Below are positions 24,969 through 58,536 of a stretch of 64,000 nucleotides of DNA, in pieces. Within the stretch, counting starts at the first letter, position 1. Each line of letters begins with the position of its first letter. This DNA comes from Fimbriimonadaceae bacterium (GTDB lineage Bacteria; Armatimonadota; Fimbriimonadia; Fimbriimonadales; Fimbriimonadaceae): assembly GCA_039811705.1 (NCBI GenBank), contig JBDHZD010000006.1:690-64689 (forward strand), written 5' to 3'. The notes beneath the pieces are model-generated. The model was not told the DNA's origin and did no database searches. It worked only from the letters and a program-made list of their open reading frames with translations. A program made the position numbers and the translations under genes.

Positions 24969-26042
24969 TCATTGTGCGCTCGTCCGCCTGCCTGCCACCC
25001 GGGATTCGATTTCGGAAAGTCCAGCGACCATGGGTCGGTGATCAGCCTCGATCAGAACTAGGACCGGACTGTGCCGAATGCCCAACCGCCGCGCCCAGGC
25101 TGTTTCTTCCTTCACCACTGACTCGAGAGACGTGTCAAAAGGGATCCCCATCTCATCCAACAACCGCTGCGAACGGGTTGCGCCGACACCCTGCTCGGCG
25201 AGCACCCCCCTGAGCCATGGTTCAAGTTTCCCCCTGCGATGCGCGGACTCCAGGTGGACCGCGATGTCCAGGTCCTGTCGCCCAAGAGCCAACAGGTTGT
25301 GGCGAAACACGATCCTGAACCCAGCGCCAGAATCGCGCAGTTTGAACAGGCGGTCGAGAGCCTCCCTGCAGGCAGGACACGAGAGTTCGCCAACCACAAC
25401 AACGGTCCGGCCCGAGTCTTCTCCGCCCACCGAGGGGCGTTCGTGACCGACGATACTGTCCGGCGGCATCGAAGCGATCGTTTTCTCAAGTTCAAGGTGT
25501 GTATCCCATAGGCGCAAAGGATCGATGGCCAGGACCAACGACAAACCCACACCCGCCAACAGCGCCACCGGCTGCTGCCAAGGCCGTCGGACCTGTGGTT
25601 CGGGTTCACCCAGGCAACCCTCTATTCCGTGAGCCACCAACAGGAGGCACCAGGTCAGCGCCGACGCCAAGCACCATGCGCAGGTCGTCCGCAACGTACT
25701 CACCGAGTACAACGTCAGCAAGAAGCTGGCCAATGTACCGGTGCCAGACAAAACGTAAGAAGCCAAGCGACACGATTCGCATCGACCGCCCACGACGAGT
25801 CTGGCGTTCGTTGCGAACAGAGCGACGTAAGCCCCGAGTCCCCAGAAAGCGACAGGCACGCCCAGCACGGCACTCCACCGGCTTCGCAGAACTTGGAGAC
25901 AACCTTCTCCGGAACGGCAGACAACGGGAACCAGCCCGGCCGCGTGCAGACTCAAGTAGAGCGTCACGAACAAACCGACTGAACTCAACACCAACCTGAC
26001 CCAAGTCCAATCGACTCGCTTCCATAAAGAAAAACTGAACAA
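24969..26042 (-). CDS. VKOR-family membrane thiol oxidoreductase fused to a DsbA/thioredoxin-like domain
   Basis: Loop Cys pair VVCRSGEGC, TM CxxC (TCAWCL), and C-terminal domain with SCPACREAL. The likely start is TTG 26042, 9 nt after AAGGAGG. The tracked start is TTG 26063. Confidence 0.8.
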   Translation of the reverse strand: MFSFSLWKRVDWTWVRLVLSSVGLFVTLYLSLHAAGLVPVVCRSGEGCLQVLRSRWSAVLGVPVAFWGLGAYVALFATNARLVVGGRCESCRLASYVLSGTGTLASFLLTLYSVSTLRTTCAWCLASALTWCLLLVAHGIEGCLGEPEPQVRRPWQQPVALLAGVGLSLVLAIDPLRLWDTHLELEKTIASMPPDSIVGHERPSVGGEDSGRTVVVVGELSCPACREALDRLFKLRDSGAGFRIVFRHNLLALGRQDLDIAVHLESAHRRGKLEPWLRGVLAEQGVGATRSQRLLDEMGIPFDTSLESVVKEETAWARRLGIRHSPVLVLIEADHRPMVAGLSEIESRVAGRRTSAQ

Positions 26043-26056
26043 TTTTCGGATCCTCC

Positions 26057-26085
26057 TTGACAATGCGGAATAGACCTGATAGACT
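26057..26085 (+). promoter_or_regulatory. Sigma70-type promoter TTGACA-N17-TAGACT for the 26129-28101 operon
   Basis: TTGACA at 26057-26062, 17-nt spacer, TAGACT at 26080-26085. The RBS GAGGAG lies 8 nt before ATG 26129. Confidence 0.45.
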
Positions 26086-26128
26086 ACCGGAACTGGTCTC
26101 TACGAAAAGAGACATGAGGAGACGTCAT

Positions 26129-26257
26129 ATGAAAAAATGGTGGAACGCGATCGTCGCACTCTTGGCGGTCGGTCTTGGGGCTACGATGATCCTGTCATCG
26201 ACCGCATTCGCCTCGAACCCAGAGGAGCAGTGCGACGAGAATCCCGGCGGAAATTGA
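26129..26257 (+). CDS. Small exported peptide precursor (42 aa; predicted 14-aa mature part SNPEEQCDENPGGN)
   Basis: GAGGAG RBS. MKKWWNAIVALLAVGLGATMILSSTAFA|SNPEEQCDENPGGN has a classic n-h-c signal with an AFA cleavage site. Confidence 0.5.
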   Translation: MKKWWNAIVALLAVGLGATMILSSTAFASNPEEQCDENPGGN

Positions 26258-26261
26258 GGCC

Positions 26262-26681
26262 GTGTCCGGTTGGACTCGGCGACTTGCTGCGCTCTTGATC
26301 GCGATTGGTTCGGTGACATTTCTCTATGGGGCCGCCCTTGAGAGTTCCGAACATCCATTCGTCTTGAGCGGAGAACCAAGCGACCTAGGCGTGATCGATG
26401 GAGATCAACTTCTCGAAAGCACAGTGGACGTGTGGAATGTGCGTCATCGGCATCTGGAACTTGAAATCGTTCTGTCTGGATGCGGGTGCGATGACCGCAG
26501 CATACAGGTGATCGATGTGCCGCCCTTCAGCCGCCGTTCGTTCACTCTGGTCACCGATCCCAGCCGTTTGCCCGTCGGCAGGCAATCGTCCTCGATTCGC
26601 TTTCGCGGGCTCATCGGCAACGAACCCTTTGAAACGCATCACCAGTATTGGTTCACTGTCCAACGGCGCATCACCGATTGA
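26262..26681 (+). CDS. DUF1573-like membrane-anchored Ig-fold protein
   Basis: N-terminal TM segment (RRLAALLIAIGSVTFLYGAAL). DLGVIDG...LELEIVLSGCGC...FTLV pattern matches the DUF1573 SCGC motif. Confidence 0.65.
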   Translation: MSGWTRRLAALLIAIGSVTFLYGAALESSEHPFVLSGEPSDLGVIDGDQLLESTVDVWNVRHRHLELEIVLSGCGCDDRSIQVIDVPPFSRRSFTLVTDPSRLPVGRQSSSIRFRGLIGNEPFETHHQYWFTVQRRITD

Positions 26682-26707
26682 GCCAAGGTGAGCCCGCCAC
26701 AGAGATC

Positions 26708-27079
26708 ATGAAACAGAACAAACCTCTCTACGCTTCGGCCGTCATCGGTCTGCTGGCAACGTGTCTCGCCATGAGCGTCACGGAAACGTATGCCGGCATC
26801 TGTCAAAAGTGCAAGTATGGAACGAAGGTCGTGAAGACCTCGTGCCCCAGTGCGTGCACCAACCCAGTCATCTGCTACCAGGCTACGATCACCGACTACA
26901 CGTGTGAAACCGAACTCTGGAAGCGCTGCGACATCGCTGGCTCGTCGGGGATGTACTCGTCAGAACAGGGACAGTGCGCTCAAACCGGATCGGGTTGCGT
27001 ATGCAGTATGTACGGAAGCGGCATCTTCACAAATCTGCCATGGCCGGATGAAGTATGTGTAACAAGCAACATGCTCTAA
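26708..27079 (+). CDS. Cys-rich secreted protein (123 aa, about 14 Cys)
   Basis: I trimmed the ORF to MKQNKPLYASAVIGLLATCLAMSVTETYAG (signal or lipobox-like LATC). The mature part is ICQKCKYG...SCPSAC...VICY...YTCE...KRCD...GQCAQ...GCVCS...EVCV. Confidence 0.6.
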   Translation: MKQNKPLYASAVIGLLATCLAMSVTETYAGICQKCKYGTKVVKTSCPSACTNPVICYQATITDYTCETELWKRCDIAGSSGMYSSEQGQCAQTGSGCVCSMYGSGIFTNLPWPDEVCVTSNML

Positions 27080-28101
27080 TCTCTCTTCTCGCAGTTCTCG
27101 CGCTGGCAGAATCGGCGAAAGCAGACGCTTGGGTGTATCGGGTCACCTTCACGACGCCACCCGTCGAAGACCCCAGGTCTCCCGAAAAGGAAGCGAGCGA
27201 CACGTCCAGGGCCCTTCGGCTCGCCGGAGTGCGCAAGGACACCGTGGACAACAATCGCGCGTTTCTGGTTCGCGCCGCGCAAGAGGCCAGGAAGGGTCGA
27301 ACCATTGAGGGCAGGGCCATGGTCGCCGTCGGCGATGGATGGTTGGTTTCAGAGCATCCCGCTCCCGTCCTCGGCGCCGGTGAGTGCACCGAAAAGCAGG
27401 TCTACCGCAATGGTGCGTCCATGTTCTGGATCGAGGGCGAGAACATCGTGCGCGTGTTCCCCGATCAGCGTCTGTCCATTGTCGGCTCTATCGCAAGCCA
27501 GTATGTGCTCGGACGGCGGTTTGCCGAGAAGGCAGAGGTCGTGCAGAAAGTGTCGGGCGGACTCCCCGTGGACAGCTATTCAGTTGCCGTGAAGGCGTTC
27601 GAACTTGACCCGTACCAAGCCAGGATGGATGTTCATTACGCCGATGCTAAGCGCTCCAAGGTGTCCCGGGTCGAGTTCCACCGCGAGTTCATCGACAAAT
27701 CCTGGTTCTTGAACGAACGTTACGACCTGACCGACGGCGAGATCACGGATGGCAAGTTGTCCTTCGCCAAAGTTCGCTTGAGGCGCTTTCGTCCGGACGG
27801 CGCTTTGGCTCAGGAGTTAGTGTATACACCCGAATCGCGACTTGAAGACGGCGCCGTCGACATGAACCTCGGCATTCCCATGGGCACCCACGTTCTTGAC
27901 AAACGGCTGGGCGAGGAAGTCCCCTACGAGTGGAATGGCGAGTGGCTCGACCTCGACGCCCTGAGAGCCGTCCAACAAAGCGAAGCGCCGCAAGCCAAGA
28001 TCCACGCGAACACGTTCGCGCTCAAGCCGTGGCACTATGGTGTCGGGCTCGTCGCCTTTGGAGCGGGCGTGGCCTACCTTGGACGCCGCCGACGCGCCTG
28101 A
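27055..28101 (+). CDS. Secreted protein with C-terminal TM segment plus Arg-cluster tail
   Basis: Signal peptide MCNKQHALISLLAVLALAESAKADA. Extreme C-terminus LKPWHYGVGLVAFGAGVAYLGRRRRA. Confidence 0.7.
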   Translation: MCNKQHALISLLAVLALAESAKADAWVYRVTFTTPPVEDPRSPEKEASDTSRALRLAGVRKDTVDNNRAFLVRAAQEARKGRTIEGRAMVAVGDGWLVSEHPAPVLGAGECTEKQVYRNGASMFWIEGENIVRVFPDQRLSIVGSIASQYVLGRRFAEKAEVVQKVSGGLPVDSYSVAVKAFELDPYQARMDVHYADAKRSKVSRVEFHREFIDKSWFLNERYDLTDGEITDGKLSFAKVRLRRFRPDGALAQELVYTPESRLEDGAVDMNLGIPMGTHVLDKRLGEEVPYEWNGEWLDLDALRAVQQSEAPQAKIHANTFALKPWHYGVGLVAFGAGVAYLGRRRRA

Positions 28102-28134
28102 AGCATTTTGGTAACCTCGGTCGTGATCATGCCT

Positions 28135-28154
28135 GGGCGGCCCTCGGGCCGCCC
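28135..28154 (+). terminator. GC hairpin after 27055..28101 (terminator-like, no U-tract)
   Basis: GGGCGGCC-CTCG-GGCCGCCC forms an 8-bp stem. Confidence 0.4.
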
Positions 28155-28173
28155 GGCTCGGCTACAATGAGTC

Positions 28174-29883
28174 ATGCCCGTCGGCAGATTCCTGCTGTGC
28201 CTCCACTCGCACATGCCCTATGTGCTCTCGCACGGCAAGTCGCCGCACGGCACCGACTGGATCAACGAAAGCGCGGCCGAGTGCTACCTGCCCATCCTCC
28301 ACGCCCTCGATAGGCTGCTGCAACAGGACATCCGGCCGCGCTGGACGATCAACCTCACGCCAATCCTCGCCGAGCAACTCGACGATCCAGCGTTCAAGGA
28401 CGGCTTCGAAGACTACTGCCAGTCCAAGATCGACTTCGCCATCGCCGACCAAAGACGCTTCCAAATCGAGGGGCCTTTGTGGATGGAGGGCCTCGCCCAC
28501 ATGTGGCAGCGGTGGTACACGCGTCAGCTTGTCCAATTCAAACACCAGTGGGGCCGCTCGATCTGCGAGGGCTTCCGCTTCTTTCAGGAGCAAGGGAGCA
28601 TCGAGATCATCACGTGCGGCGCGACCCACGGCTATCTCCCCCTGTTGGCCACCGAAGAGTCCGTCCAGGCCCAAGTCAAGCTGGCCGTCTCCAGCCACAC
28701 CAAGCGCTTCGGCAAGCCCCCGCGCGGCATCTGGCTCCCAGAGTGCGCCTACCGCCCGGCCTATGCCTGGAAGTCGCCCGTCGCCGACGAGGAACCTTGG
28801 GCGCGCAAGGGCGTCGAGCATTTCCTCAAGGAGAACGGCCTCGAGTACTTCTTCGTGGATTCCCACATGATCCGTGGCGGCGCGCCGCTCGGCACCTACG
28901 CGGGCAAGTTCCCCCAGCTCGCCGAGCTGTTCGCCCGAAGCGCCAAGTACTTCACGCCGCCCCCCGAGGAGCGCAGCGAGTACGAACGCTACGCCCTGCC
29001 GAACGGCGTGCAACTCTACGCCCGCGACCCCGAGACCACGGTCAAGGTGTGGTCGGGAGACCACGGATACCCCGGCGACGCCCGCTACCTTGAGTTCCAC
29101 AAGCAGCTGTATCCGGGACGCTTGCGCTACTGGGCGATCAGCGAAGACAAACGAGACCTTGGCGCCAAGCGACCCTACAACCCCTGGGAAGCCTACGAGC
29201 AGATCCCGAACCACGCCGAGGACTTCGTCCAGACCCTGAAAGGCACGCTGGCCCACTACAAAGGCACCAAGGACAAGGTCGGGACGCTTGTCGCGATGTA
29301 CGACACCGAATTGTTCGGGCATTGGTGGTGGGAGGGACCCGAGTTCCTCTACGAATGCGCCCTCCGTATGCACAACGACCCCGACCTACAGTGTGTCACG
29401 GGAGGCGAACTACTCGACCTCGAGCCGCCCGCCGCGACGATCACCCTCCCCGAAGGCTCGTGGGGCGAAGGCGGCTATCACTTCGTATGGCTCAACGAGG
29501 ACAACGCATGGACGTGGCCCAAACTCCATGCGGCGCAAAAGTCCATGATCGGCATCGCCCAAGAATGCCGCACCGGCCTGGCCAAGCGCATCGCCGAACA
29601 ATGTGCCCGCGAACTCCTGTTGGCGGAAGCCTCCGACTGGCAGTTTCTCATCTCGACGCAATCCGCGCGCGACTACTCCGAGGTCCGATTCGACGACCAT
29701 ATCGAACGCTTCGGTCGGCTCGCCGACCTTGCCCGCCGCGTCTTGGACGGCGCGACGCTCACTCTGGGAGAACAGGCGTTCCTTGAGGATTGCGAGCAGA
29801 AAGATGCCCCATTTCCCGAGATCGACCTCGACTACTGGGCCCATCTGGACCAAACGCTAGGCAGCGAAATCCACCTCGGATAG
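28174..29883 (+). CDS. GH57-family 1,4-alpha-glucan branching enzyme
   Basis: CLHSHMPYV, HGTDWINESAAECYLPIL, and WLPECAY are typical GH57 motifs. 569 aa. TACAAT sits 5 nt upstream of the ATG. Confidence 0.9.
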   Translation: MPVGRFLLCLHSHMPYVLSHGKSPHGTDWINESAAECYLPILHALDRLLQQDIRPRWTINLTPILAEQLDDPAFKDGFEDYCQSKIDFAIADQRRFQIEGPLWMEGLAHMWQRWYTRQLVQFKHQWGRSICEGFRFFQEQGSIEIITCGATHGYLPLLATEESVQAQVKLAVSSHTKRFGKPPRGIWLPECAYRPAYAWKSPVADEEPWARKGVEHFLKENGLEYFFVDSHMIRGGAPLGTYAGKFPQLAELFARSAKYFTPPPEERSEYERYALPNGVQLYARDPETTVKVWSGDHGYPGDARYLEFHKQLYPGRLRYWAISEDKRDLGAKRPYNPWEAYEQIPNHAEDFVQTLKGTLAHYKGTKDKVGTLVAMYDTELFGHWWWEGPEFLYECALRMHNDPDLQCVTGGELLDLEPPAATITLPEGSWGEGGYHFVWLNEDNAWTWPKLHAAQKSMIGIAQECRTGLAKRIAEQCARELLLAEASDWQFLISTQSARDYSEVRFDDHIERFGRLADLARRVLDGATLTLGEQAFLEDCEQKDAPFPEIDLDYWAHLDQTLGSEIHLG

Positions 29884-29886
29884 CTC

Positions 29887-30273
29887 CTAGTGGATCGTTT
29901 CCACGGGCTCGCTCAGCAGCACGGCGTAGCCGTCCGGATCGGCAACCAAAAACGTGCGCTCTCCCCACAGGGCGTTCTGCAAGCCGCGCAACACGTGGAA
30001 TCGGCTGAGTTCGATGGTCTTTGCCAGTTCGGCCAAGCCACTCACCATCAGGTTGATGACCAGTCCACCGCTCCGGTCGAGGGCAGGGTTCTGCTCATGC
30101 TTGGGCTGTTGGAGCAAGAGAATCTCGGCCGTTCCCGCCACGAGGCGGGCGACGCGATGCCCATCCCAAGTGTCGGTAGACGCCACACGCAAGCCCAGGA
30201 CGCCGGAATAGAACTCCAGCGAGCGATCCAAATCCGCGACGTCCAAGATGAGTTTCGATAGAGTGCCGCCCAT
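29887..30273 (-). CDS. VOC/glyoxalase-family protein
   Basis: I trimmed the ORF to MGGTLSKLILDVADLDRSLEFYSGVLGL, the beta-alpha-beta-beta-beta module start. Confidence 0.8.
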   Translation of the reverse strand: MGGTLSKLILDVADLDRSLEFYSGVLGLRVASTDTWDGHRVARLVAGTAEILLLQQPKHEQNPALDRSGGLVINLMVSGLAELAKTIELSRFHVLRGLQNALWGERTFLVADPDGYAVLLSEPVETIH

Positions 30274-30322
30274 GGCGCAGTTTCCTATGGGCGATTGATT
30301 CGCCGCCTCCTGCGGCCCTCCT

Positions 30323-30961
30323 TTATCTTGGGTCGCTCCCGCCACGATCTTCTGGGCGTCCGGTTCGCCAAATGCGTTCCATGTCGTCCCATGTGGCGAG
30401 CGGTTCGTCCAGATCTTGTCTGGTCAGTCCCGTGATGCCAAGGGCCTCCAGAACGGGTCGATCCTGTCGCAGACCCGCCAGCCGGCCCTCAGCGGTCGGT
30501 TCGACGGGACCATGTGGCGCTGTCCGGCGCCAATCCAGATCCCAGGCGCGCACGACATGTTGCATGAGGCGGCACTTCGGACCATGGTCGGTCGGCTCGA
30601 CTGAAAACATGAGAACCGCTTCCATGCCATTGCCTTTCCAATGCACCCTCGCGACGCCTTGCGCTCCCAGAGCAAACACCTGGGTTTCTATCGTGGGATC
30701 GAGAGCGCTCCACGCCTTGGCGCGAGGCACAACCAGTTCGCGAATCAACCGCTCGGCGCCAGACGGTTCAAGACCCAGCCGCTTCAGTTCGTCCGGATCC
30801 GTGTACGCCGCAAGCGTCGCCGCATCTCCAGCGACGAAGGCCTCGGCGATTCGAAGCGCATGGTGGTCGAGCCCCGGGGGCCGCTGGATGGCCGCGACCC
30901 AGGTCGCGGCCAAACCGAGCACGGCCAAAGCGGCCCATCCGAACGGGATCAGCCTTCGCAA
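30323..30961 (-). CDS. Membrane-anchored hypothetical protein (212 aa), last gene of the 32335-30323 operon
   Basis: Candidate TTG start at 30961 gives MRRLIPFGWAALAVLGLAATWVAAIQ. It overlaps the upstream stop by 13 nt. The start call is uncertain. Confidence 0.5.
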   Translation of the reverse strand: MRRLIPFGWAALAVLGLAATWVAAIQRPPGLDHHALRIAEAFVAGDAATLAAYTDPDELKRLGLEPSGAERLIRELVVPRAKAWSALDPTIETQVFALGAQGVARVHWKGNGMEAVLMFSVEPTDHGPKCRLMQHVVRAWDLDWRRTAPHGPVEPTAEGRLAGLRQDRPVLEALGITGLTRQDLDEPLATWDDMERIWRTGRPEDRGGSDPR

Positions 30962-31230
30962 GTCCCACCGCTGCAGAAGAGTCCCGGGAAGTAGCGCTTG
31001 TAGCGGATCGTCACCGGATTGTTGCCGCAAAAGGCCGGCGTGCTCTCGCACATGCAACAGCCGCCAGCGGCCGGGTTGTAGCACGCGAACGAGGACGGCC
31101 CGTACTCGGTGGGCGAGCAGTTGTCCGTGCTCACGCATGCATCGGGTGCAAAGCCCCAGTTGCAGGGGTAGGGAGAGGCCAGTACGGCACAGCCGACGAG
31201 CGTGGCGAGGAGGAGTCTCTTCAGTTTCAT
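30949..31230 (-). CDS. Cys-rich lipoprotein (93 aa, 12 Cys)
   Basis: MKLKRLLLATLVGC has the lipobox LVGC. The mature part is PYPCNWGFAPDACVSTDNCSP...FACYNPAAGGCCMCE...AFCGNN...LFCSGGTCEG. The ATG forms an ATGA overlap with the upstream stop. Confidence 0.65.
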   Translation of the reverse strand: MKLKRLLLATLVGCAVLASPYPCNWGFAPDACVSTDNCSPTEYGPSSFACYNPAAGGCCMCESTPAFCGNNPVTIRYKRYFPGLFCSGGTCEG

Positions 31231-31793
31231 GGTTCTCCTTGTGCGCGCTCCCACCATCGCAGGTCGCCCCAGTCGCCGCGTTGGGTGCGCGTGACCAGAG
31301 AACCGCCGACGGTGACGCCGAACGCGTGTTTGGTCGTTTGGGGAGCGTGCAAATCGGTGGTGGCCGTCTTGTGGTTGATGTCGACGACTTCAATGGCGGC
31401 GGAATGGACGCGGGCCACGTGGGCGGCAAAGTCGGTCCGTGGTGTCGCCGGCTGCCGATCGACGGCCATCAGGATGTAGCCGATGGCTCCGGGGTTCTGG
31501 ATGTATTCGTTCGGTGTTCGCGGGCAATGCAGCAGTCGAGGGTCGAGCTTGTCGCGCACGGCAAACGTTAGGAACGGGGGATATCCCATCGCGACGGCCG
31601 AACCCTCGGTCGCCCCGCCGTGGTCCTCGCGGTAGATCGCCAGCGCCAAATGCACCTGGCGGAGGTTGTTGACGCAGTTGCTCTGCCGACCACGCTCCAC
31701 AACGCCAAGAAGGACGGGCGACAGGAGGGCGGCCAGCACTCCTACGATCGCCGCCACCGCAAGCAACTCGGCCAAAGTGGCCCCGCGCTTCAC
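31227..31793 (-). CDS. Prepilin-type N-terminal cleavage/methylation protein (DUF1559-like pseudopilin)
   Basis: MKRG|ATLAELLAVAAIVGVLAALL (G at -1, E at +5), followed by RGRQSNCVNNLRQVHLALAIYREDHGG. Confidence 0.8.
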   Translation of the reverse strand: MKRGATLAELLAVAAIVGVLAALLSPVLLGVVERGRQSNCVNNLRQVHLALAIYREDHGGATEGSAVAMGYPPFLTFAVRDKLDPRLLHCPRTPNEYIQNPGAIGYILMAVDRQPATPRTDFAAHVARVHSAAIEVVDINHKTATTDLHAPQTTKHAFGVTVGGSLVTRTQRGDWGDLRWWERAQGEP

Positions 31794-32335
31794 GAGCGAT
31801 CCCCCAGCGGCAGGTTGGGATCGTCGATAGGGGTCTGCTGGAACGCGGCGAGCCGCCCGTCTGCCTCAAGCAGGTGGCTCCGGGGCACGAACCGAGGAGC
31901 CAAAGATGCGGTCAACGACCCGTCTTCATCGGCGTAAAGGTGGGCGGGCTCGGGAACGCGGTCGCGCCAACGCGCCACTTCCCCTCGCGATCCTTGTACC
32001 ACCACGACGACTCGCGAGTACGACCTGGGGTCGATGCGCTCCAAGGGCCGAAGGGGCTCGGCGCTGCATGTCGAGCACGCGCCCGCCAGAACGACGAGCA
32101 ACGGGCCGGAAGGGCGATCCCCCAAATAGCGATCTGCCCGCAACTCGACCCGACCGCCGACTGCCGGGTCCGGCAAGACCGACGGACGCGCCTGCTCGAG
32201 ACGCCACGCCTCGGAACGCGCCGAAGCGATGTGCCCAAAGCCAAACACCAAACCCGCCGACAGAACGGCAGAGGCCGCCAACGCAACAGCTCCGGAGGTT
32301 GCACCACACTTCATCATGAGTACTATAGTACTCAC
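31790..32335 (-). CDS. Membrane-anchored TlpA/ResA-like thioredoxin-fold protein (CSTC)
   Basis: TM segment AVALAASAVLSAGLVFGFG. PLLVVLAGACSTCSAEPL is a CxxC motif in Trx context. The tracked start is GTG 32335. ATG 32317 or 32314 is likely if the transcript is leaderless. Confidence 0.6.
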   Translation of the reverse strand: MSTIVLMMKCGATSGAVALAASAVLSAGLVFGFGHIASARSEAWRLEQARPSVLPDPAVGGRVELRADRYLGDRPSGPLLVVLAGACSTCSAEPLRPLERIDPRSYSRVVVVVQGSRGEVARWRDRVPEPAHLYADEDGSLTASLAPRFVPRSHLLEADGRLAAFQQTPIDDPNLPLGDRS

Positions 32336-32351
32336 TACTTGCGTCTGTCAA
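32322..32351 (-). promoter_or_regulatory. Sigma70-type promoter TTGACA-N18-TATAGT placed 4 nt upstream of ATGATG (leaderless-type)
   Basis: The minus strand reads TTGACA (32351..32346), an 18-nt spacer, TATAGT (32327..32322), ACTC, then ATGATG (32317..32312). Confidence 0.4.
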
Positions 32352-32372
32352 GCCTCCGGAGGCTCTTTTTTT
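32351..32372 (+). terminator. Palindrome AGCCTCCGGAGGCT followed by CT7 (terminator geometry on the plus strand)
   Basis: 14-nt perfect palindrome at 32351-32364, then CTTTTTTT. It sits between the pntB stop (32385) and the module promoter. The U-tract is on the strand opposite to both flanking genes. Confidence 0.4.
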
Positions 32373-32384
32373 CGAATAGCCCTG

Positions 32385-35223: not shown

Positions 35224-35299
35224 ATAGGCACCTCTGACCCGCAGTGCTGATGCTCGCGAGTCTTGCCTAGCATTCCACGCCGGGGACCTCGAATCCTGC

Positions 35300-36853: not shown

Positions 36854-36863
36854 ACATTGAAGC

Positions 36864-37832: not shown

Positions 37833-37882
37833 GCCCCGATCTTAGCCCAAGCCCGCCACCCCGTGCGGTAGGCTGTGCCCAC

Positions 37883-38299: not shown

Positions 38300-38302
38300 C
38301 GC

Positions 38303-45226: not shown

Positions 45227-45239
45227 TACAATCCCGGAC

Positions 45240-45914: not shown

Positions 45915-45993
45915 CCCCACGAATTCGGGTTCGATTCAGGTTCGCGGGAACCAAGATGGTGGTATCCTTTAGGTCGCGCAACCGCGCGTCCTG

Positions 45994-47328: not shown

Positions 47329-47386
47329 ACATTGCCCTGCCATTCCCCATGAAATCCACCCAAAACCCCTCGTCTTGGAGGCTCCG

Positions 47387-49359: not shown

Positions 49360-49363
49360 GGTT

Positions 49364-50566: not shown

Positions 50567-50640
50567 GAGGACGAGGATACCTGCCGGAACCGGTCCAACC
50601 CGAAATCAACCTCTTACGAGGACGTCGGATGCCCCCGCCC

Positions 50641-52546: not shown

Positions 52547-52590
52547 AGAAGTCGCGGGTGAAAGCCGTCTTACCCCACCGGACCGGGAGC

Positions 52591-53532
52591 ATGTCCGGCG
52601 GATCGGGTATGGATACGCTCTTGGAACCCATCGCTTGGACCGCCGCCGCCCTCAGCTCGATCTACTTCGGCGCCATCTGGTTGGTGGTGCGCGTCGGGTT
52701 GCGACCGCCACGCATGCCGCTCTTCCTCACCCCAGCCGCTCTGGATTGCCCTCAGGAGGACATCGCGTTCCATACCGCCGACGGATTGACGCTTCGCGGT
52801 TGGTGGCTCCCCGCGGATGTGCCGAAGGGCTGCGTGGTGATCGCCCACGGCTACCTGATGAACCGTTGCGAGTTGTCCATCGTGGGCTCCAAGCTGCGCC
52901 AAGCGGGATGGGACGTTTTGATGTTCGACCTCCGCGCCCATGGGGAAAGCCAAGGGCAGCGTTGCGGCATGGGGTGGCACGAAGCGCGCGACGTGGAGGC
53001 TGCGGCGAACTTGGCGCGTTCGCGTTCTGGCGATCGGCCTGTGGTCCTGTTGGGCAGCAGCATGGGCGGCGCGGCATCGGCGCTGGCACTGTCCAAGGCC
53101 CCGGGATTGGCCCAAGGAATGGTGATGGACAGCGTGTACTCCCAGCTTCCCGATGCAGCCATGGGGATCTTGCGCGTGTTCGTGGGCCGCTGGGCACCGA
53201 AGGCGTTCGCGCCGGGAATCGTGCTCGCGTGGCCGATGCTGGGGTTCAAGCCGTGGAAGGTCGACCTTGCCGACCACTTGCCGCGCGTCGATTGTCCCGT
53301 GCTGATGCTCCACGGCTCACGGGATGGCCTCATTCCGCCCGACCGCGCACGCCGGAACTTCGAAGCCCTGCCTCACCCGCAGGGGCCGATCTGGTTCGAA
53401 CGGGCTGGCCACTGCGAAGGGCGAATGCTCGAACCGAAGCGGTACGTCGAGGTGGTGTTGGCGTTCTGCAACAGCGTCGCAGGTTCGGGGCGCTCACTTG
53501 AGCGTGACCAACACCCCGGCCACGATCAATAG
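52591..53532 (+). CDS. Membrane-anchored alpha/beta hydrolase
   Basis: N-terminal TM segment, HGYLMNR, nucleophile elbow GSSMGG. The start is 52591 or 52609. Confidence 0.8.
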   Translation: MSGGSGMDTLLEPIAWTAAALSSIYFGAIWLVVRVGLRPPRMPLFLTPAALDCPQEDIAFHTADGLTLRGWWLPADVPKGCVVIAHGYLMNRCELSIVGSKLRQAGWDVLMFDLRAHGESQGQRCGMGWHEARDVEAAANLARSRSGDRPVVLLGSSMGGAASALALSKAPGLAQGMVMDSVYSQLPDAAMGILRVFVGRWAPKAFAPGIVLAWPMLGFKPWKVDLADHLPRVDCPVLMLHGSRDGLIPPDRARRNFEALPHPQGPIWFERAGHCEGRMLEPKRYVEVVLAFCNSVAGSGRSLERDQHPGHDQ

Positions 53533-53861
53533 GCACCCGACCGCCAGCCGCAGGTCCAGCTTCTCCTTGAGCACGACGATGCCCAAGACTACGGCAATCA
53601 CAAAGCTGAGCTTGTCGATCGGTGCGACACGCGCCACGTCGCCACAGCCGACAGACCCAAGAACACCCAGTGCGACCGAGTCAATCCTCCGACCTTCGCC
53701 TCCCCCGTCGAGAGTGCAAGAAGCAGCGAGAAGACCAACACGAACGCCACGCGAACCAGCAATGCCGTATTCGCCGGCACGTCCTTGACACCGAGTTTGG
53801 CGAGAATCGCCGTGGCTCCCGCGAAGAGCGCCGAAAGCAGAGCCCAACCGTTGGCGGACAT
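53494..53861 (-). pseudogene. Small EamA/DMT-type transporter gene, interrupted (two frames)
   Basis: Frame 1 (53861..53598) encodes MSANGWALLSALFAGATAILAKLGVK...SHWVFLGLSAV. Frame 2 continues with GDVARVAPIDKLSFVIAVVLGIVVLKEKL...VAGVLVTLK (to 53494). The junction is near 53640-53665, and about 15 residues seem to be missing relative to my recollection of family members. Confidence 0.55.
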
Positions 53862-53927
53862 GATCAGACGTTACCGCGATCCCGCCGATGACGTGCCGGA
53901 TAGAACGGGATATGCAAGAATGGTGGC

Positions 53928-54244
53928 GGAGTCGGCCAGACGGCGGCCTCGGCGCAAGCCGGGGAGGAAAGTCCGGACTTCACAGGGCGCGGCGCCCCGG
54001 GCAATCGGGGGCGAGGCGACTCGACGGAAAGTGCCACAGAAACAAACCGCCCCGACTCGTCGGGGTAAGGGTGAAATGGTGAGGTAAGAGCTCACCGGCG
54101 TCCCGGGCAACCGGACGGCCGGGCAAACCCCGCCGGAAGCAAGGCCAAATAGGGAGGGGCTGACGCGGCCCGCCGACCCTCCGGGTTGGCCGCATAGACA
54201 AATCGCCGTCCAAGACAGAATCCGGCTTATCGGCCGACTCCACC
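53928..54244 (+). ncRNA. rnpB: RNase P RNA, bacterial type A
   Basis: P1 pairs GGAGTCGGCC with GGCCGACTCC. Conserved regions GAGGAAAGTCCGGAC, GAAAGTGCCACAGAAA, GGTAAGGGTGAAA, GGTAAGAGCTCACC and ACAGAATCCGGCTTATCGGCC are present. Compact, about 317 nt. Confidence 0.9.
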
Positions 54245-54337
54245 TCCAAAACCCTGTAGGATTGCCGGGTTTCCGCCGATACCTGCCTTGGCGGAACTCG
54301 GAAACGAGCGCCGCCACCAACAGGAAAACCGAGAAGC

Positions 54338-54601
54338 ATGGCCCGAATGCGCTCCACGTCCCAAGCCGTCTCCATCAGCGTCGCCAGTACGATCACCGGC
54401 GTCGAAGTCCATACCCTGCGCTATTGGGAAAAGGAGTTCGACGCGTTCTTGAACCCCGAGCGAACCCGCGGCGGCCAACGGCGCTACCGGCCCGAAGACA
54501 TCCAGACCGTCTTCGCCATCAAACAGCTTCTCCGCGACGAGATGTTCTCCATCGCCGGGGCGCGCAAGCATCTGGAGCGCACCCACCGGCACGCCGCGTG
54601 A
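54338..54601 (+). CDS. Small MerR-family HTH regulator
   Basis: ITGVEVHTLRYWEKEFD...GGQRRYRPEDI is a MerR-type HTH plus wing. 87 aa. Confidence 0.8.
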   Translation: MARMRSTSQAVSISVASTITGVEVHTLRYWEKEFDAFLNPERTRGGQRRYRPEDIQTVFAIKQLLRDEMFSIAGARKHLERTHRHAA

Positions 54602-54606
54602 CCCCC

Positions 54607-56637
54607 ATGTCCCCCCAATCCCAACTGGCTCTCGAGCAGTTCCGCGACGGTCGCTATCAGGAAGCCGAACGCACCGCCCTCCAATGCCCTCCGGACGAAC
54701 CCGGTCGTTGCGTCGCGCTGGGCATGGTCTACCTGCACACGCAGCGTGAAGCCGAAGCCCTCAGCTGTTTGGAGTCCGCGCCGGACGCCACGGTCGCAGC
54801 CTTGCTGGGCGAGCACCTCGCCGCCCGCCAAGCGATGGCCGCCAAGCTGAACCGTAAAGACCCCGAAGGCGAACGCATGACCGCCAGGTTCCAGTCGCTG
54901 GGCTACGCATTGCCTAAGCAAGGCGTCCGCCTGAGCGCATGCCTCATCGTCAAGGACGAAGCCGCCACGATCGACGCGTGCCTCAAGAGCCTGAGGGATG
55001 TCGTCGACGAGATCGTGGTGGTGGACACCGGCTCCACGGACGACACGATCGCTCGGGCCAAGAAGCACGGTGCGAAGGTCTACCATGCCGAGTGGACCGA
55101 CGACTTCGCCGCGGCGCGCAACGTCTCCCTGCAGCACGCTTCCGGCGATTGGGCGCTGTGGATCGACGCGGACGAAACGCTCGACCCTTCGAGCGCCGAC
55201 GCCATCCGCGAAGCCCTGATGCGGCCCCAGTTCGGCGGCTTCTTCGTGCGCATCGTGAACTATCTGGCCGACACGGGTCAAGCCGCACAATACGTCCACC
55301 GACCGATCCGTCTGTTTCGGCTGGCCGAGGGCGTGAAGTTCGTGGGCCGCATCCACGAGCAGGTTTCGCCGTCGATTCAGGCCACGGGAAGACCATGCGC
55401 CAACCTCGACGGCGTGGTGCTGCACCACTCGGGCTATCGCCCACAGGCGATGCGCGACAAGAACAAACTCGAGCGCACGATCTCGATGCTCGAGCGCGAG
55501 GTGGCCGAGCGGCCCGAGGACGGTTTCCAGTGGTTCAACCTGGCCAACGTGCTGAGCGTCGCTGGCCGGTATGCGGACGCCGAACACGCTGCGGTCCAAG
55601 CCAGCCGAAACTTTCCGCCCAAGGCTTCGTTTGTCGCGCCGGTCTACCACCTGATGGCGGTCAGCCGCATCGAGTTGGGCCGCCCGCAAGATGCCCTCGC
55701 GGCGTGCGACGAGGTGGAGCGATTGGGCCTGCACAACATCGTCAACCAGTTCAACCGTGCCCATGCTCTGATGCGGCTGCGAAGGCTCGATGAAGCGCTT
55801 GAAGCCGTCCGCGCGTGCGACGGCATGGAGTGGAACCCCGACATCCCCGGCGACTACGGCATAGTCACCCACAAGAAGCACGTTCTGGAAGGGCAAATTC
55901 TCGCGCAATCGGGTCGTTTGGACGAGGCGCTTGTCGCATTCGACGCTGCATTGGCCGTGGATCCGGATTACGACGTAGTGCTGTACTCCAAGGCGGCCAC
56001 ACTGGAACAGAAAGGCGACAAGGAACAGGCCAAGGCCGCCTATGAACGAGTGGTTGGCAGCGAAGCCCTCGACCTGCCCGCGCGCAAGGGCGCGATGCGC
56101 ATGCAACTCGCCTTAGGCGAATACGAACACGCCATCGCGATGGGCCGAGAGACTTGGGTGCGTTACATGGACGAGGACGCCTGGCTCCTTTGGGCGGGCG
56201 CCGCGGAACAGGCCAACAACCCCGTCGCCCTCGATGTGTGCTATCAGGCCTACGCGCAAGCCAACACGCCTACTCCGCAGATGTGGATCAATTGGGGACG
56301 CGTCCAAGAAGCCTTGGACAAACCTCAAAGCGCGTACGACTGCTATGCCGAAGCCATGAAGGCCGCACCACACGATCCGAACGCGTGCTTCAACGCGGCC
56401 GACCTGCTATACCGGTTGGGCTTGCACCACGAGGCCGCCGTTCTCTATCAAAACGGCCTGCAACTGGATTCGATGAAACCCGAAGGCTGGTTCTGCTTGG
56501 GCAACTGTCTGGCGCAGCTCGGCTTGGCCGATGGGGCTCGGCTGGCCTATGGCAAGACGCTCGAGCTCGACCCGCAACACGCTGGGGCGCAGCACAACCT
56601 GTCGCTGTTCGACGCGAGCCAACCCAAGGCTGCCTAG
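54607..56637 (+). CDS. TPR-repeat / family-2 glycosyltransferase fusion protein
   Basis: I trimmed the ORF to ATG 54607. The GT2 core is LSACLIVKDEAATIDACL...VVVDTGSTDDT...WIDADE, flanked by TPR repeats. Confidence 0.85.
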   Translation: MSPQSQLALEQFRDGRYQEAERTALQCPPDEPGRCVALGMVYLHTQREAEALSCLESAPDATVAALLGEHLAARQAMAAKLNRKDPEGERMTARFQSLGYALPKQGVRLSACLIVKDEAATIDACLKSLRDVVDEIVVVDTGSTDDTIARAKKHGAKVYHAEWTDDFAAARNVSLQHASGDWALWIDADETLDPSSADAIREALMRPQFGGFFVRIVNYLADTGQAAQYVHRPIRLFRLAEGVKFVGRIHEQVSPSIQATGRPCANLDGVVLHHSGYRPQAMRDKNKLERTISMLEREVAERPEDGFQWFNLANVLSVAGRYADAEHAAVQASRNFPPKASFVAPVYHLMAVSRIELGRPQDALAACDEVERLGLHNIVNQFNRAHALMRLRRLDEALEAVRACDGMEWNPDIPGDYGIVTHKKHVLEGQILAQSGRLDEALVAFDAALAVDPDYDVVLYSKAATLEQKGDKEQAKAAYERVVGSEALDLPARKGAMRMQLALGEYEHAIAMGRETWVRYMDEDAWLLWAGAAEQANNPVALDVCYQAYAQANTPTPQMWINWGRVQEALDKPQSAYDCYAEAMKAAPHDPNACFNAADLLYRLGLHHEAAVLYQNGLQLDSMKPEGWFCLGNCLAQLGLADGARLAYGKTLELDPQHAGAQHNLSLFDASQPKAA

Positions 56638-56700
56638 CTGAGAGCCGCAGCCAGCGTGCTCCCAGCGATCGCAGAATAGTCAAAAAAACCGATCTGGGCA

Positions 56701-56730
56701 TTGACATGACCCTCATAATCGTGATATCGT
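56701..56730 (+). promoter_or_regulatory. Sigma70-type promoter TTGACA-N18-TATCGT, 9 nt upstream of GTG 56740
   Basis: TTGACA at 56701-56706, 18-nt spacer, TATCGT at 56725-56730. No SD sequence before GTG 56740, so the transcript would be leaderless or near-leaderless. Confidence 0.35.
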
Positions 56731-56739
56731 TCATGCATT

Positions 56740-57141
56740 GTGAGACTCAAGCTGGAAGCCGTTGTCGTCTTCGGTGGGGTTTTGGCGAGCTTTGCGCTGG
56801 CGATTCCACCAAGTCCTTGTGTGCCGCCAAATCTATGTCCGGAGTGAGTGTGGTCCCAGAATGGACAAGGTTGCGGGCCGACCTCAGTCATCGAAACGGT
56901 GAACACCAACCAGAATGTGAACCTGAAGTACTGCACGAAGCGCAACCCAGAGTTCCACGGGTGTCCGGTTCCCGTAGGCCAATGCAACGAAGAAGAGTGG
57001 TGGTACTACACCAAGGCTGAGATTCGATGCGTGAACCAAACCACGGGCGCGTATACCGTGGTTGGAACGTGTGCTTGGGCCGTGTTGAGTAGAACGAAGT
57101 CCGGCCACATGTGTCCGGCGTGCTTGGAACCCGTGGAGTAA
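56740..57141 (+). CDS. Cys-rich secreted protein whose signal peptide (56740-56844) is separated from the mature domain (tracked ORF 56848..57141) by an in-frame TGA
   Basis: The same frame reads GTG-MRLKLEAVVVFGGVLASFALAIPPSPCVPPNLCPE-TGA(56845-56847)-VWSQNGQGCGPTS... The downstream part has 10 Cys and no signal peptide of its own. Confidence 0.5.
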
Positions 57142-57145
57142 ATGG

Positions 57146-57727
57146 ATGCGCAGAACGGTCATAATACGCGGGTGGACTTTGGTCGAGGTTCTTGGTGTCG
57201 CCATGATCTTGGCTGTCTTGGCGGGCATCGTTGCGCTCGTCGCTGGGCCCCGCATGAAGCGGTCGGCAACCGTCGCCGAGGCTGGCAACCACCTTCGCCA
57301 GCTTTCGTTCGCGCTCAACCTCTACATGAACGAGCACGACGGATTGCCGCCGAGGACGATCGAGCCGTTGCTGAGCGGCCTCCCGGCTCGGGACCCGCTT
57401 GGAGGTTCGTGGCTCTACTCCTGGGTTCGGTTCACTCCCGACCGTGAAGGAATTGACTTCGCCGACTATGGCTTCGAAATCGGCAAAGACGCTGTCTTTC
57501 GCTGCTCCCGAGTCCACAACCATCGAGGCAAGGTCGAAACCCTGGTAATGCGCGTTGACGGACATCCGCCGATCGTGCAACATGTGCCCATCCTGGATGC
57601 GGGCCAGAAACTTGGCCTGCTTGGGTCTCGTTTGGATGGCAGTGTCGGCTGGTTCCCCTCGCCTCCCAATTGGGAACTGGCCCTGCCCCAAGGCCAAGAC
57701 GACCCGAACAATCCCGGACGGCGCTGA
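57146..57727 (+). CDS. Prepilin-type N-terminal cleavage/methylation protein (DUF1559-like pseudopilin)
   Basis: MRRTVIIRG|WTLVEVLGVAMILAVLAGIV (G at -1, E at +5), then AEAGNHLRQLSFALNLYMNEHDG. It starts 4 nt after the upstream stop. Confidence 0.8.
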   Translation: MRRTVIIRGWTLVEVLGVAMILAVLAGIVALVAGPRMKRSATVAEAGNHLRQLSFALNLYMNEHDGLPPRTIEPLLSGLPARDPLGGSWLYSWVRFTPDREGIDFADYGFEIGKDAVFRCSRVHNHRGKVETLVMRVDGHPPIVQHVPILDAGQKLGLLGSRLDGSVGWFPSPPNWELALPQGQDDPNNPGRR

Positions 57728-58536
57728 TGATTGCGACCTGGCGTTGGCGGGGCGTTGGCATCTTTGCGATGCTGGCAAGTGCCTTGTGGCTCGCAGTCGG
57801 GAACTGCTCCGAGTGCGCAAGGCATGGATCGCTCGCAGTTGGACTGGCATGGGCGGGATTCGCATATGCGTTGCTAATTTCGTTCACGATCGCAAAGTGG
57901 GCACCGGGTTGGATTCAATCTGTCGCTTGGGTGGCGGGCTTAGGTGCCAGCGTGGTTGGCCTTTGGATGATCAGCTTGCTGACCACCCGCTCCGGACCCT
58001 GCCCGTGGTGCCTGACGTTTTGGGCAGGCCATTACGGGTGGGTACTGCATCAAGATGCCTGGAACAAGCGACAAAGAGTTCTGTTCGTTGCCGCAATGGC
58101 AGCTTCCCTATTGGGCCTCACTGCCGTCCGGATCGATCGAGACGCTGCCTTGGAAGTCGAGACGTTTGCTTTGGCGTACCTGCCTGCGTCCTCACCTGCG
58201 CCCCAGTGGATCGCGCCAGGCCGATCCATCCATCCGGACATCGTCTTGGACGATGGAGAAACCGCACTCATTGTTTGGACCGAATGCGCCCCGTGCGGCA
58301 GGGCGGCTGCGAAGTCGGGCCTCGCCGCATTCGAGCGGGCGTATCCGAAACGAAAGGTGTGGACTTGGCCCGGAGGCGTTGCGACTCTGCCCCAATCCCT
58401 CGGCACGGACTACCTGATACCGCCCTTGACGTTCTTCGACGACTTCGGGATGAGGCCCGACGACCCTCCAGCGTTCGTCGTTTTGCGGGGTCACAAAGTC
58501 GAACGAATCGGCAGACTCGCCGACTTCCGGCAGTAG
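57727..58536 (+). CDS. VKOR/DsbB-like polytopic membrane protein fused to a thioredoxin-like domain
   Basis: ATG 57727 overlaps the upstream TGA (TGATG). There are 4-5 TM segments with CSEC and CPWC, and the C-terminal domain has WTECAPCGRAA. Confidence 0.65.
   Translation: MIATWRWRGVGIFAMLASALWLAVGNCSECARHGSLAVGLAWAGFAYALLISFTIAKWAPGWIQSVAWVAGLGASVVGLWMISLLTTRSGPCPWCLTFWAGHYGWVLHQDAWNKRQRVLFVAAMAASLLGLTAVRIDRDAALEVETFALAYLPASSPAPQWIAPGRSIHPDIVLDDGETALIVWTECAPCGRAAAKSGLAAFERAYPKRKVWTWPGGVATLPQSLGTDYLIPPLTFFDDFGMRPDDPPAFVVLRGHKVERIGRLADFRQ

Follow-up and report, generated by a model that had tools for sequence, protein, structure and literature searches.

Putative oxidative-folding cassettes that combine membrane thiol:disulfide oxidoreductases with cysteine-rich exported proteins in a member of the Fimbriimonadaceae

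A 64,000-nucleotide stretch of the genome of a Fimbriimonadaceae bacterium (assembly GCA_039811705.1, contig JBDHZD010000006.1, positions 690 to 64,689), hereafter called the window and numbered from its first letter, contains three small loci (A, B, and C) that each encode a membrane thiol:disulfide oxidoreductase together with an exported, cysteine-rich protein. We consider it probable that these loci are accessory operons, each of which maintains a private oxidoreductase for the co-encoded, Sec-exported disulfide-rich protein (the cargo). The enzyme and the cargo of locus C form a conserved trio with a prepilin-like protein. The three loci are accessory, as documented by the loss of locus A, the rapid divergence of locus B, and the recent transfer of locus C among close relatives.

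The clustering of oxidoreductase, Cys-rich, and prepilin-like genes in the window exceeds that expected by chance. In a crude gene map based on the GC content of third codon positions (GC3), which comprises ~66 genes (GC content of the window, 63%), the three proteins with more than 8% cysteine, the three CxxC oxidoreductases, and the two genes with prepilin-type N-termini are all confined to loci A, B, and C. Under random gene placement, the pairing of oxidoreductases with Cys-rich proteins has a probability of ~0.014, which drops to ~1e-6 when the arrangement of the pilin genes is added. The survey of Dsb-type genes of the source organism covered the 64-kb window; among the small open reading frames (ORFs) for exported Cys-rich proteins in 1.39 Mb of other DNA from Fimbriimonadaceae, the only convincing ones are orthologs of the locus B protein.

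All ORFs on which an initial annotation of the window had based the three loci exist where it placed them, and the genes called independently in public assemblies of this strain concur (a VKOR protein of 357 aa and proteins of 42, 139, 123, and 348 aa at locus A; proteins of 175, 188, 93, and 199 aa at locus B). The chaining of genes that it described for loci B and C is also present, with neighboring genes that either overlap by 4 nt (ATGA) or stand a few bases apart. A consensus scan of 12 kb returned three sigma-70-like sites in total, one directly upstream of each operon; the 8.3 kb scanned around loci A and B contain two of these sites, compared with ~1.0 expected by chance.

What recurs among the three loci is a type of composition and not a sequence. 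All-against-all BLAST and profile comparisons did not relate the three cargo proteins to each other, nor the three enzymes, except for a weak alignment between the enzymes of loci A and C that is limited to helix 3 and a CxxC motif. Prepilin-like proteins are encoded at two of the three loci, as initially annotated (B and C, none at A), and are homologous to each other over the first 67 residues only (hhalign probability, 97%), which comprise the class III signal, the hydrophobic helix, and a segment of the form “NxLRQ..Y..DH.G”. The initial description of the loci as one recurring module was overstated, because neither the cargo proteins nor the enzymes of loci A, B, and C are detectably related.

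The conserved trio of locus C

The operon at locus C (plus strand) encodes a Cys-rich exported protein with a 10-Cys scaffold, interrupted by a TGA codon in the window (56740-57141), a prepilin-like protein of 193 aa with the signal G|WTLVE and an LGxRLDGSxGWF motif near its C-terminus (57146-57727), and an oxidoreductase of 269 aa, whose gene overlaps that of the pilin by ATGA (57727-58536). The operon is preceded by a sigma-70-like site with an extended TG element (TTGACA-18-TATCGT; 56701-56730, plus strand), which is the only one in 4 kb. The number of cysteines in the cargo protein, initially reported as 10+2, is 10.

Word-indexed searches with the locus C enzyme retrieved relatives only within the genus, and the wider family surfaced only when 1.84 billion representative proteins were searched exhaustively with HMMER, which yielded 11 further relatives with 25-42% identity, so that the family comprises 12 clusters. 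The enzyme has no sequence match in Pfam, NCBIfam, or PDB, and no member of its family exceeds any Pfam threshold (VKOR is matched by 1 of 11 members at E = 0.23); plasmid and phage collections contain no match to it. Three CxxC pairs are conserved throughout the family alignment. The first (CSEC in the window) follows helix 1 as GxCxxC, the second (CPWC) stands at the start of helix 4 as an invariant CxxC followed by FW, and the third (CAPC) belongs to a C-terminal thioredoxin-like domain, in which WTxCxPC is invariant and a cis-Pro-like DDPP loop nearly invariant among 11 sequences.

An AlphaFold model based on the family alignment (pLDDT 89, pTM 0.73) predicts five membrane helices followed by a thioredoxin-like domain of the topology strand-helix-strand...strand-strand-helix; it replaced a model computed from the single sequence (pLDDT 46.8), which was uninformative in Foldseek searches. 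The elements of the modeled domain are arranged in the order strand 178-184, CAPC, helix 188-197, PP, and strand 249-254, with the CxxC motif at the start of a helix that follows a strand and with a cis-Pro-like loop, as expected of a thioredoxin fold. Among the PDB structures matched by Foldseek, the top 13 are thioredoxin-fold proteins, mostly membrane-associated (best E = 0.04, probability 0.91), and the leading matches are 2b5x, FetE (8t4c), DsbF (4pq1), CcmG (1kng), and SdbA; these matches agree with a thioredoxin fold but fall short of formal significance. The only full-length matches are the Synechococcus VKOR-thioredoxin structures (4nv6, 3kp9), which are weak (TM 0.32-0.33, E = 0.5-1.3). 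The fusion with a thioredoxin proposed initially is in keeping with the invariant WTxCxPC, the near-invariant DDPP, and the modeled thioredoxin-like fold.

Lysine and arginine residues of the enzyme are concentrated at the N-terminus and in loops 2 and 4. This distribution assigns these parts to the inner side, so that the thioredoxin domain and the two CxxC pairs of the membrane part are predicted to face outward, as in an oxidizing relay of the VKOR/DsbB type. The initial annotation had taken the protein to be VKOR/DsbB-like; with no match to any profile or PDB sequence, the enzyme can be given this label only for its predicted topology and its motifs. In the sole example from the JGI metagenomes (L110, 2428-3173), the oxidoreductase is split over two overlapping frames, one for the membrane part and one for the thioredoxin part, by either a frameshift or an assembly error.

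The adjacency of the enzyme and the pilin-like gene is maintained among the relatives of the locus C enzyme. Every relative of the locus C enzyme with readable DNA on the relevant side adjoins a homologous pilin-like gene, which adds eight further lineages (L099, L102, L103, L104, L105, L106, L107-109, and L110), and a homologous 10-Cys protein is encoded at five of the six locus C-type loci with readable flanks. The order is enzyme, pilin-like, Cys-rich in L102, L103, L105, and L110, and enzyme, pilin, Cys-rich, second pilin, second Cys-rich in L107-L109, where (in L107, 5111-8160) a single oxidoreductase serves two successive pairs of pilin-like and 10-Cys proteins. In L104 and L106, the pilin gene adjoins the enzyme gene and the contig is cut; L100 and L101 are uninformative, with contigs cut upstream. 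In total, the trio of oxidoreductase, pilin-like, and Cys-rich protein occurs in at least six separate lineages, despite an identity of only 25-42% among the enzymes and a permuted gene order. The GC content of these contigs ranges from 51 to 64%; one member stems from a metagenome-assembled genome (MAG) of Fimbriimonadaceae, and the others are not placed taxonomically. A scan of JGI metagenomes with the pilin motif returned a single locus.

The pilin-like proteins of this family are homologous to the window protein over their full length (30-49% identity) and share an invariant LGxRLDGSxGWF...W, but have no conserved cysteine. All eight members match N_methyl (best, 1.6e-9) and the GspG N-terminus (best, 4.4e-11), which supports the initial identification of the window protein as prepilin-like, although the latter alone remains below the Pfam cut-off (13.6 vs. 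21.2). A class III signal with Glu5 is present in the pilins of both locus B (G|ATLAE) and locus C (G|WTLVE). DUF1559 (PF07596) matches neither of the window's pilin-like proteins and only one of the eight family members (E = 0.042). Homologs of the cargo protein were found in L102, L103, L105, L107 (two copies), and L110; the 10-Cys scaffold has a conserved spacing in seven of the eight members of the Cys-rich family. The public names of all these proteins are “hypothetical protein” or generic pilin labels. In L107, both Cys-rich genes are uncalled in the public record (the first in the gap at 6552-7137), and the small Cys-rich genes of the family are easily missed by gene callers.

Because the pilin family lacks conserved cysteines and the cargo family keeps ten of them, the Cys-rich protein would be the logical substrate of the enzyme. 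The conserved linkage, the permuted order, and the co-duplication of pilin and cargo indicate that the genes form a functional module whose pilin and cargo are matched to each other, and the neighborhoods of the related lineages indicate that the adjacency of the genes at locus C is functional and not accidental. The co-occurrence of these genes in related genomes and the existence of homologs of the Cys-rich ORFs, on which the initial proposal had been made to depend, are established for loci B and C: locus B has orthologs in related species, and the locus C protein belongs to a 10-Cys family.

The recent history of locus C differs from that of its surroundings. A block of ~2.5 kb (~56.55-59.05 kb), which holds the genes of the cargo, the pilin, and the enzyme and most of a gene for a 195-aa protein, differs at only seven positions between the window and a sister lineage represented by four independent samples (L001, L003, L005, and L006; 99.7% identity), whereas the flanking genes for a glycosyltransferase, HSP20, and Lon differ by 10-15% between the same lineages. 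In the same sister genome, locus B is diverged and locus A is absent. The near-identity of the block amid diverged flanks, together with the diverged locus B and the missing locus A, indicates that the cassette was recently exchanged as a unit, probably by homologous replacement, because it occupies the same chromosomal site in both lineages. The codon at 56845-56847 of the window's cargo gene is TGA also in L002 and L004, but GGA (Gly) in L001, L003, L005, and L006. Selenocysteine was rejected as an explanation, as the codon alternates with GGA among near-identical strains and falls into a non-Cys column, and Rfam returned no SECIS element. The window's copy of the cargo gene is therefore a nonsense allele, whose premature stop arose after the exchange of the cassette.

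The 195-aa exported protein that follows the locus C operon (58592-59179, plus strand) lies within the near-identical recombined block; its gene is not conserved at the other loci that bear the trio. Elsewhere in this region, the window differs from the otherwise identical strain L002 by ~10% in short stretches of the genes for a TPR-glycosyltransferase (54400-55400) and Lon (60200-60800). Judging from this mosaic structure, homologous recombination is probably frequent in the population, which would agree with an exchange of the locus C cassette.

Loci A and B

The enzyme of locus A (24969-26042, minus strand; 357 aa as called, with an ORF that reaches 26063) is a fusion of a VKOR domain with a DsbA-like thioredoxin domain, as initially annotated. 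Residues 21-143 match Pfam VKOR (PF07884) with E = 2.6e-16 and 60.4 bits (cut-off, 27.5), and the C-terminal domain matches the DsbA-like protein 3gyk (2.9e-4) and Synechococcus VKOR (4nv2; 3.5e-3) in PDB; the match to Pfam Thioredoxin_4 is below the cut-off (15.5 vs. 23.2). The cysteine motifs VVCRSGEGC, TCAWC, and SCPAC are conserved in an alignment of VKOR-DsbA proteins (A4) and reproduce the VKOR layout, with a Cys pair in the loop, a CxxC in helix 4, and a CxxC in the fused DsbA-like domain. Full-length identity with the VKOR-DsbA fusions of L019 and L033 is 27-29%.

The enzyme gene is divergent from the operon of locus A, which lies on the plus strand downstream of a sigma-70-like site with an extended TG element (TTGACA-17-TAGACT; 26057-26085). 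The first gene encodes an exported peptide of 42 aa (26129-26257), which consists of a signal peptide and a tail of ~13 aa with one cysteine; it is preceded by a GAGGAG ribosome-binding site 7 nt before the ATG and was called as a 42-aa gene in five independent assemblies. It is followed by a gene for an N-terminally anchored protein of 139 aa with an SGCGC motif (26262-26681), which has no match in Pfam or NCBIfam. The resemblance of this protein to DUF1573 (PF07610) that was noted initially is limited to the SGCGC motif, as the profile remained unmatched even at E = 10. The Cys-rich exported protein of locus A (26708-27079; 123 aa) has 12 cysteines, not 14 as first counted, and no family match in profile searches; the same is true of the last protein of the operon (27055-28101; 348 aa), which starts with a signal peptide and carries a membrane anchor near its C-terminus, with RRRRA after it.

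L007 and GCA_048499975.1 cleanly lack the entire 3.2-kb block of locus A (24980-28155), and their acetyltransferase gene directly adjoins a GH57 gene. The clean absence of the whole block from a sister species indicates that the enzyme and the operon travel together and are dispensable, which argues against an indispensable housekeeping role of the enzyme as DsbA/B. In L008, the ortholog of the gene for the 348-aa tail-anchored protein is 79% identical and persists as a frameshifted remnant at the end of a contig, on which nothing else of locus A is visible. The boundary of the indel lies between the acetyltransferase gene and GH57. It does not coincide with a tRNA-Cys (GCA) gene (23882-23957, plus strand) at a distance of ~1 kb from locus A, with which the listed acetyltransferase ORF overlaps at its 3' end. 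An additional gene of 416 aa without Pfam match, which is not present in the window, is located between the glyoxalase gene and GH57 in L007 (11710-12965) and L112 (11933-13183).

The closest relatives of the window are “Chthonomonas sp.” UBA2387 (L007) and AMX-MBFR-81 (L008). When the GH57 gene, which is situated between loci A and B, was used to scan species-representative genomes, 80 loci were returned, most of them under names from the Fimbriimonadaceae/Armatimonadota group and a few under others. Of these, 78 share GH57 alone with the window, except for a few scattered weak matches, so that synteny does not extend past the genus. Split genes in L087 and L088 were rejected as pseudogenes, since their DNA is identical to that of the window and the splits are differences in gene calling.

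In an Armatimonadota MAG (L033, 2425-5303), the VKOR-DsbA gene is directly preceded by small exported Cys-containing ORFs and a gene for a tail-anchored protein of 359 aa with a signal peptide. This layout resembles that of locus A but has no detectable sequence similarity to it, and the tail-anchored proteins share only their architecture. Two further candidates were rejected: the Cys-rich ORF adjoining the VKOR-DsbA gene of L019 encodes a cytoplasmic zinc-finger protein, and that of L070 was judged to be a spurious ORF with a low-complexity translation, a weak GC3 signal, and no signal peptide.

Locus B (minus strand) is preceded by a sigma-70-like site that matches the consensus at 11 of 12 positions (TTGACA-18-TATAGT; 32322-32351). 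Its oxidoreductase (31790-32314; 174 aa from the ATG at 32314, 175 aa in public calls) is a thioredoxin-like protein with a single anchor and the motif CSTC. The initial assignment to TlpA-like thioredoxins fits this motif; the family matches agree among three orthologs but are all below cut-offs (Redoxin, E = 0.03-0.11; AhpC-TSA_2, E = 0.01-0.07; TIGR00385 DsbE, E = 0.038). A profile search against PDB returned only DsbE/CcmG, with the CxxC motifs in register and weak E values (0.17-2). The gene overlaps by 4 nt with that of a prepilin-like protein of 188 aa with the signal G|ATLAE (31227-31793), whose identity was confirmed by TIGR02532 (17.0 bits vs. a cut-off of 16.3), the GspG N-terminus (3.7e-7), the GspG structure 5wda (8.7e-6), and the presence of Glu5.

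The pilin gene in turn shares an ATGA overlap with the gene for the Cys-rich protein of locus B (30949-31230; 93 aa), which has 11 cysteines, including one in a lipobox-like LVGC, and not the 12 that had been counted in the putative lipoprotein. All 11 cysteines are invariant across six orthologs (75-100% identity), whereas the loops between them vary. The last gene encodes an N-terminally anchored protein of 199 aa (30323-30922), which is conserved in L007 and L008 with 62-64% identity. The order thioredoxin, pilin-like, Cys-rich, and 199-aa anchored protein is the same in three species; relatives of the cargo and the pilin outside the genus were not found in word-indexed homolog searches.

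The dN/dS ratios of locus B (enzyme, 0.20; pilin, 0.07-0.10; Cys-rich protein, 0.13-0.17; 199-aa protein, 0.15-0.24) range from 0.07 to 0.24, compared with 0.02-0.06 for the flanking genes, and the dN values from 0.07 to 0.28, compared with 0.02-0.06 (most 0.02-0.04). The genes of locus B are therefore real and under purifying selection, with an amino acid divergence that is 3-10 times that of their flanks.

Proposed function and alternative explanations

Dedicated oxidative folding is the best-supported reading of the loci and is strongly backed for locus C by the conserved neighborhoods. The Cys-rich proteins carry Sec signals, as read from the sequence, with the lipobox-like LVGC in the case of locus B, and the co-encoded enzyme would introduce or shuffle their disulfides. 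The cargo is the likely substrate of its enzyme because the two are linked and because conserved cysteines occur in the cargo but not in the pilins. At locus C, the thioredoxin domain would oxidize, and possibly also shuffle, the cysteines of the cargo, whose 10-Cys scaffold would correspond to about five disulfides. By analogy with VKOR-thioredoxin fusions, electrons might flow from CxPC of the thioredoxin domain via the two outward CxxC pairs of the membrane domain to quinone. The folded cargo would then pair one-to-one with its pilin-like partner, which may be cleaved by a prepilin peptidase and carry or release the cargo via a fiber of the type IV pilus or type II secretion kind. Loci A and B would fulfill a task of this kind by means of unrelated components: locus A with a VKOR-DsbA fusion, and locus B with an anchored, TlpA/DsbE-like thioredoxin that presumably relies on another enzyme for recycling. 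The gene content, the linkage, the fold and motifs, and the evolutionary behavior are documented by the data, whereas we infer the substrate, the direction of electron flow, the complex of pilin and cargo, and the display at the surface.

Several observations weigh against this reading. In the window itself, the cargo gene of locus C is interrupted by the in-frame TGA, so that the cassette may not work in this strain. In L099, the order is pilin, enzyme, and no Cys-rich gene is within reach. No significant match to VKOR/DsbB was obtained for the membrane domain of the locus C enzyme (an hhalign probability of 19% with the VKOR-DsbA alignment, limited to helix 3 and CxxC; Foldseek TM 0.33, E > 0.5), which makes the coupling to quinone a guess, and the thioredoxin domain of this enzyme is closest to the TlpA/CcmG class, which includes reductases. 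No genes of a pilus or secretion machinery were identified in the window, although no examination aimed at pilD or the pilus machinery was made. Moreover, the three loci are not mutually homologous, so that what holds for locus C may not hold for loci A or B. Of the initial proposal of dedicated oxidative-folding cassettes, the part that stands is the linkage, which strongly supports it for locus C, and the gain or loss of locus A and the inheritance of locus B as units; the notion of a single module does not.

A more specific version, in which locus C is a pilus-linked unit of display or secretion, is rather doubtful. It holds that a new, perhaps independently arisen family of DsbB/VKOR analogs folds a 10-Cys knot protein, which is handed over one-to-one to a dedicated pilin-like carrier and displayed on, or released via, a type IV-like fiber, and that the cassette as a whole is exchanged between lineages.

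An unlikely alternative, which nevertheless fares better than the remaining ones, is that the enzymes are reductases, isomerases, or metal handlers (Scs, CcmG/TlpA-like), and that the Cys-rich proteins are kept reduced, are shuffled, or bind a metal such as copper. The thioredoxin domains of loci B and C are indeed nearest to the TlpA/CcmG/DsbE/FetE class, many members of which are reductases, and proteins with five disulfides commonly need isomerization. However, both CxxC pairs in the membrane domain of the locus C enzyme are predicted at the outer face, and no cysteine faces the cytoplasm, which fits DsbB/VKOR and not the import of electrons by DsbD/CcdA; the locus A enzyme is a true VKOR-DsbA fusion, a known oxidizing pair; and the fixed, even spacing of cysteines in the cargo resembles a disulfide scaffold and not a metal-binding cluster.

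Dedicated oxidative folding leaves the biological role of the cargo to be considered. The cassettes might encode secreted factors of antagonism or interaction (disulfide-knotted toxins, bacteriocins, or adhesins) together with their maturation enzyme, with the anchored proteins acting in immunity or docking and the pilin as an accessory of secretion; we regard this as slightly less likely still. Presence/absence variation, an amino acid evolution faster than that of the flanks, and the transfer of whole cassettes are typical of loci involved in competition or surface recognition, and private disulfide enzymes have a precedent in a bacteriocin operon, the sunA-sunT-bdbA-sunS-bdbB operon of sublancin (PMC6391423). 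By contrast, the loci contain no transporter, protease, or recognizable immunity gene, profile searches gave no similarity to known toxins or bacteriocins, and dN/dS is well below 1. As this explanation concerns the role of the products, it is compatible with dedicated folding as the mechanism.

The least credible explanation is that the oxidoreductases are general disulfide machinery that merely adjoins Cys-rich genes by chance: the locus A enzyme looks like an ordinary VKOR-DsbA, and its counterpart in L019 sits among unrelated cytoplasmic genes, but the enzyme family of locus C is linked to pilin-like and Cys-rich genes in readable contexts (in L099 without the latter), a sister species with an otherwise shared neighborhood lacks locus A, and the probability of three chance co-locations is low (P ~0.014, or ~1e-6 with the pilins). 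A chance adjacency of housekeeping Dsb genes is unlikely for loci B and C and only weakly tenable for locus A.

Relationship to known systems and neighboring features

Searches of the paper library used here returned no description of this combination of genes, in agreement with the initial annotation, which knew of no described system of this composition. The loci are nevertheless kin to two known kinds of systems, substrate-dedicated disulfide systems and pairs of pilins and their partners, and involve three unannotated families.

The fusions of VKOR with thioredoxin or DsbA (Synechococcus VKOR, 3kp9, 4nv2) include the locus A enzyme, which is a member by its match to Pfam VKOR. The locus C enzyme resembles them in its five membrane helices, the outward Cys pair after helix 1, the CxxC of helix 4, and the outward thioredoxin-like domain. 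It has, however, no significant match to VKOR by sequence or profile, and its structural likeness to VKOR is weak (TM 0.33). The CxxC that forms its first Cys pair lies in a very short loop, a feature closer to DsbB. Moreover, the known VKOR fusions are regarded as general oxidases and not as parts of a fixed trio.

A private oxidoreductase encoded beside a secreted client is known from two systems. DsbL/DsbI is an additional redox pair beside DsbA/DsbB, and the disulfide of AssT requires DsbL (PMC6067686); in the sublancin operon, BdbB forms the disulfides of the product (PMC6391423). The loci described here share this principle, with a dedication deduced from linkage. The enzymes of the known systems are recognizable members of DsbA/DsbB, have no pilin-like partner, and serve a cargo with one or two disulfides, compared with about five in the case of locus C.

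In type IVb pili, a single operon encodes a pilin-type protein and a secreted non-pilin protein that docks to it for export or display, as in the pairs CofB-CofJ and TcpB-TcpF (PMC6048534, PMC9565799, PMC10120004). The tandem duplication of pilin and cargo in L107 would fit such a one-to-one pairing. In contrast to the loci described here, CofB-CofJ and TcpB-TcpF are located inside complete pilus operons, have no private disulfide enzyme, and show no sequence relationship to the proteins of these loci.

The pilin-like proteins resemble the PulG-like prepilins of Armatimonadota, Planctomycetota, and Verrucomicrobiota (DUF1559/HX9DG, Verru_Chthon) in their class III signal, Glu5, and the “NxLRQ...Y..DH.G” segment. 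Weak matches of the locus C pilin family to TIGR02596 (Verru_Chthon cassette protein D; five of eight members) and DUF1559 (one of eight) do not reach the thresholds, and its globular domain with LGxRLDGSxGWF is distinct from those of the PulG-like prepilins. To our knowledge, none of the PulG-like, DUF1559, or Verru_Chthon families has been described as standing in fixed linkage with an oxidoreductase and a 10-Cys protein.

Locus C thus links three families without a Pfam or NCBIfam model or an informative public name, namely the fused oxidoreductase, the pilin-like protein with LGxRLDGSxGWF, and the 10-Cys exported protein. Should the enzyme prove to be a quinone-linked oxidase without sequence relationship to DsbB/VKOR, it would represent a further bacterial route to disulfide formation and could become a compact tool for the production of disulfide-rich proteins. 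The fixed pairing with a disulfide-rich protein suggests, for one or more branches of the very large pilin-like families of Armatimonadota, Planctomycetota, and Verrucomicrobiota, a function that can be tested. The reach of these implications is limited by the rarity and the narrow taxonomic range of the family, of which the 1.84 billion representative proteins contain 12 clusters and the JGI metagenomes a single locus. The contrasting histories of loci A, B, and C mark them as ecologically variable traits in bacteria that are common in wastewater reactors.

The neighborhood of locus C contains several other features. A protein of 481 aa with VWA domains and MshEN is encoded ~5 kb downstream of the locus (63351-63998, plus strand, in the window; 15595-17040 in L001). 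The MshEN domain is the c-di-GMP-binding module of MshE pilus ATPases, and judging from its domains, the protein is a candidate for a regulatory connection with pilus-type systems. A bacterial class A RNase P RNA (53928-54245, plus strand; 247.7 bits) is far more conserved between lineages than the surrounding coding genes. Between Lon and a MerR-family gene (62158-62897, minus strand), the window and L002 carry a gene for a PemK/MazF-type toxin (113 aa) with a small gene upstream of it, both of which L001 lacks; this pair looks like a strain-variable toxin-antitoxin insertion.

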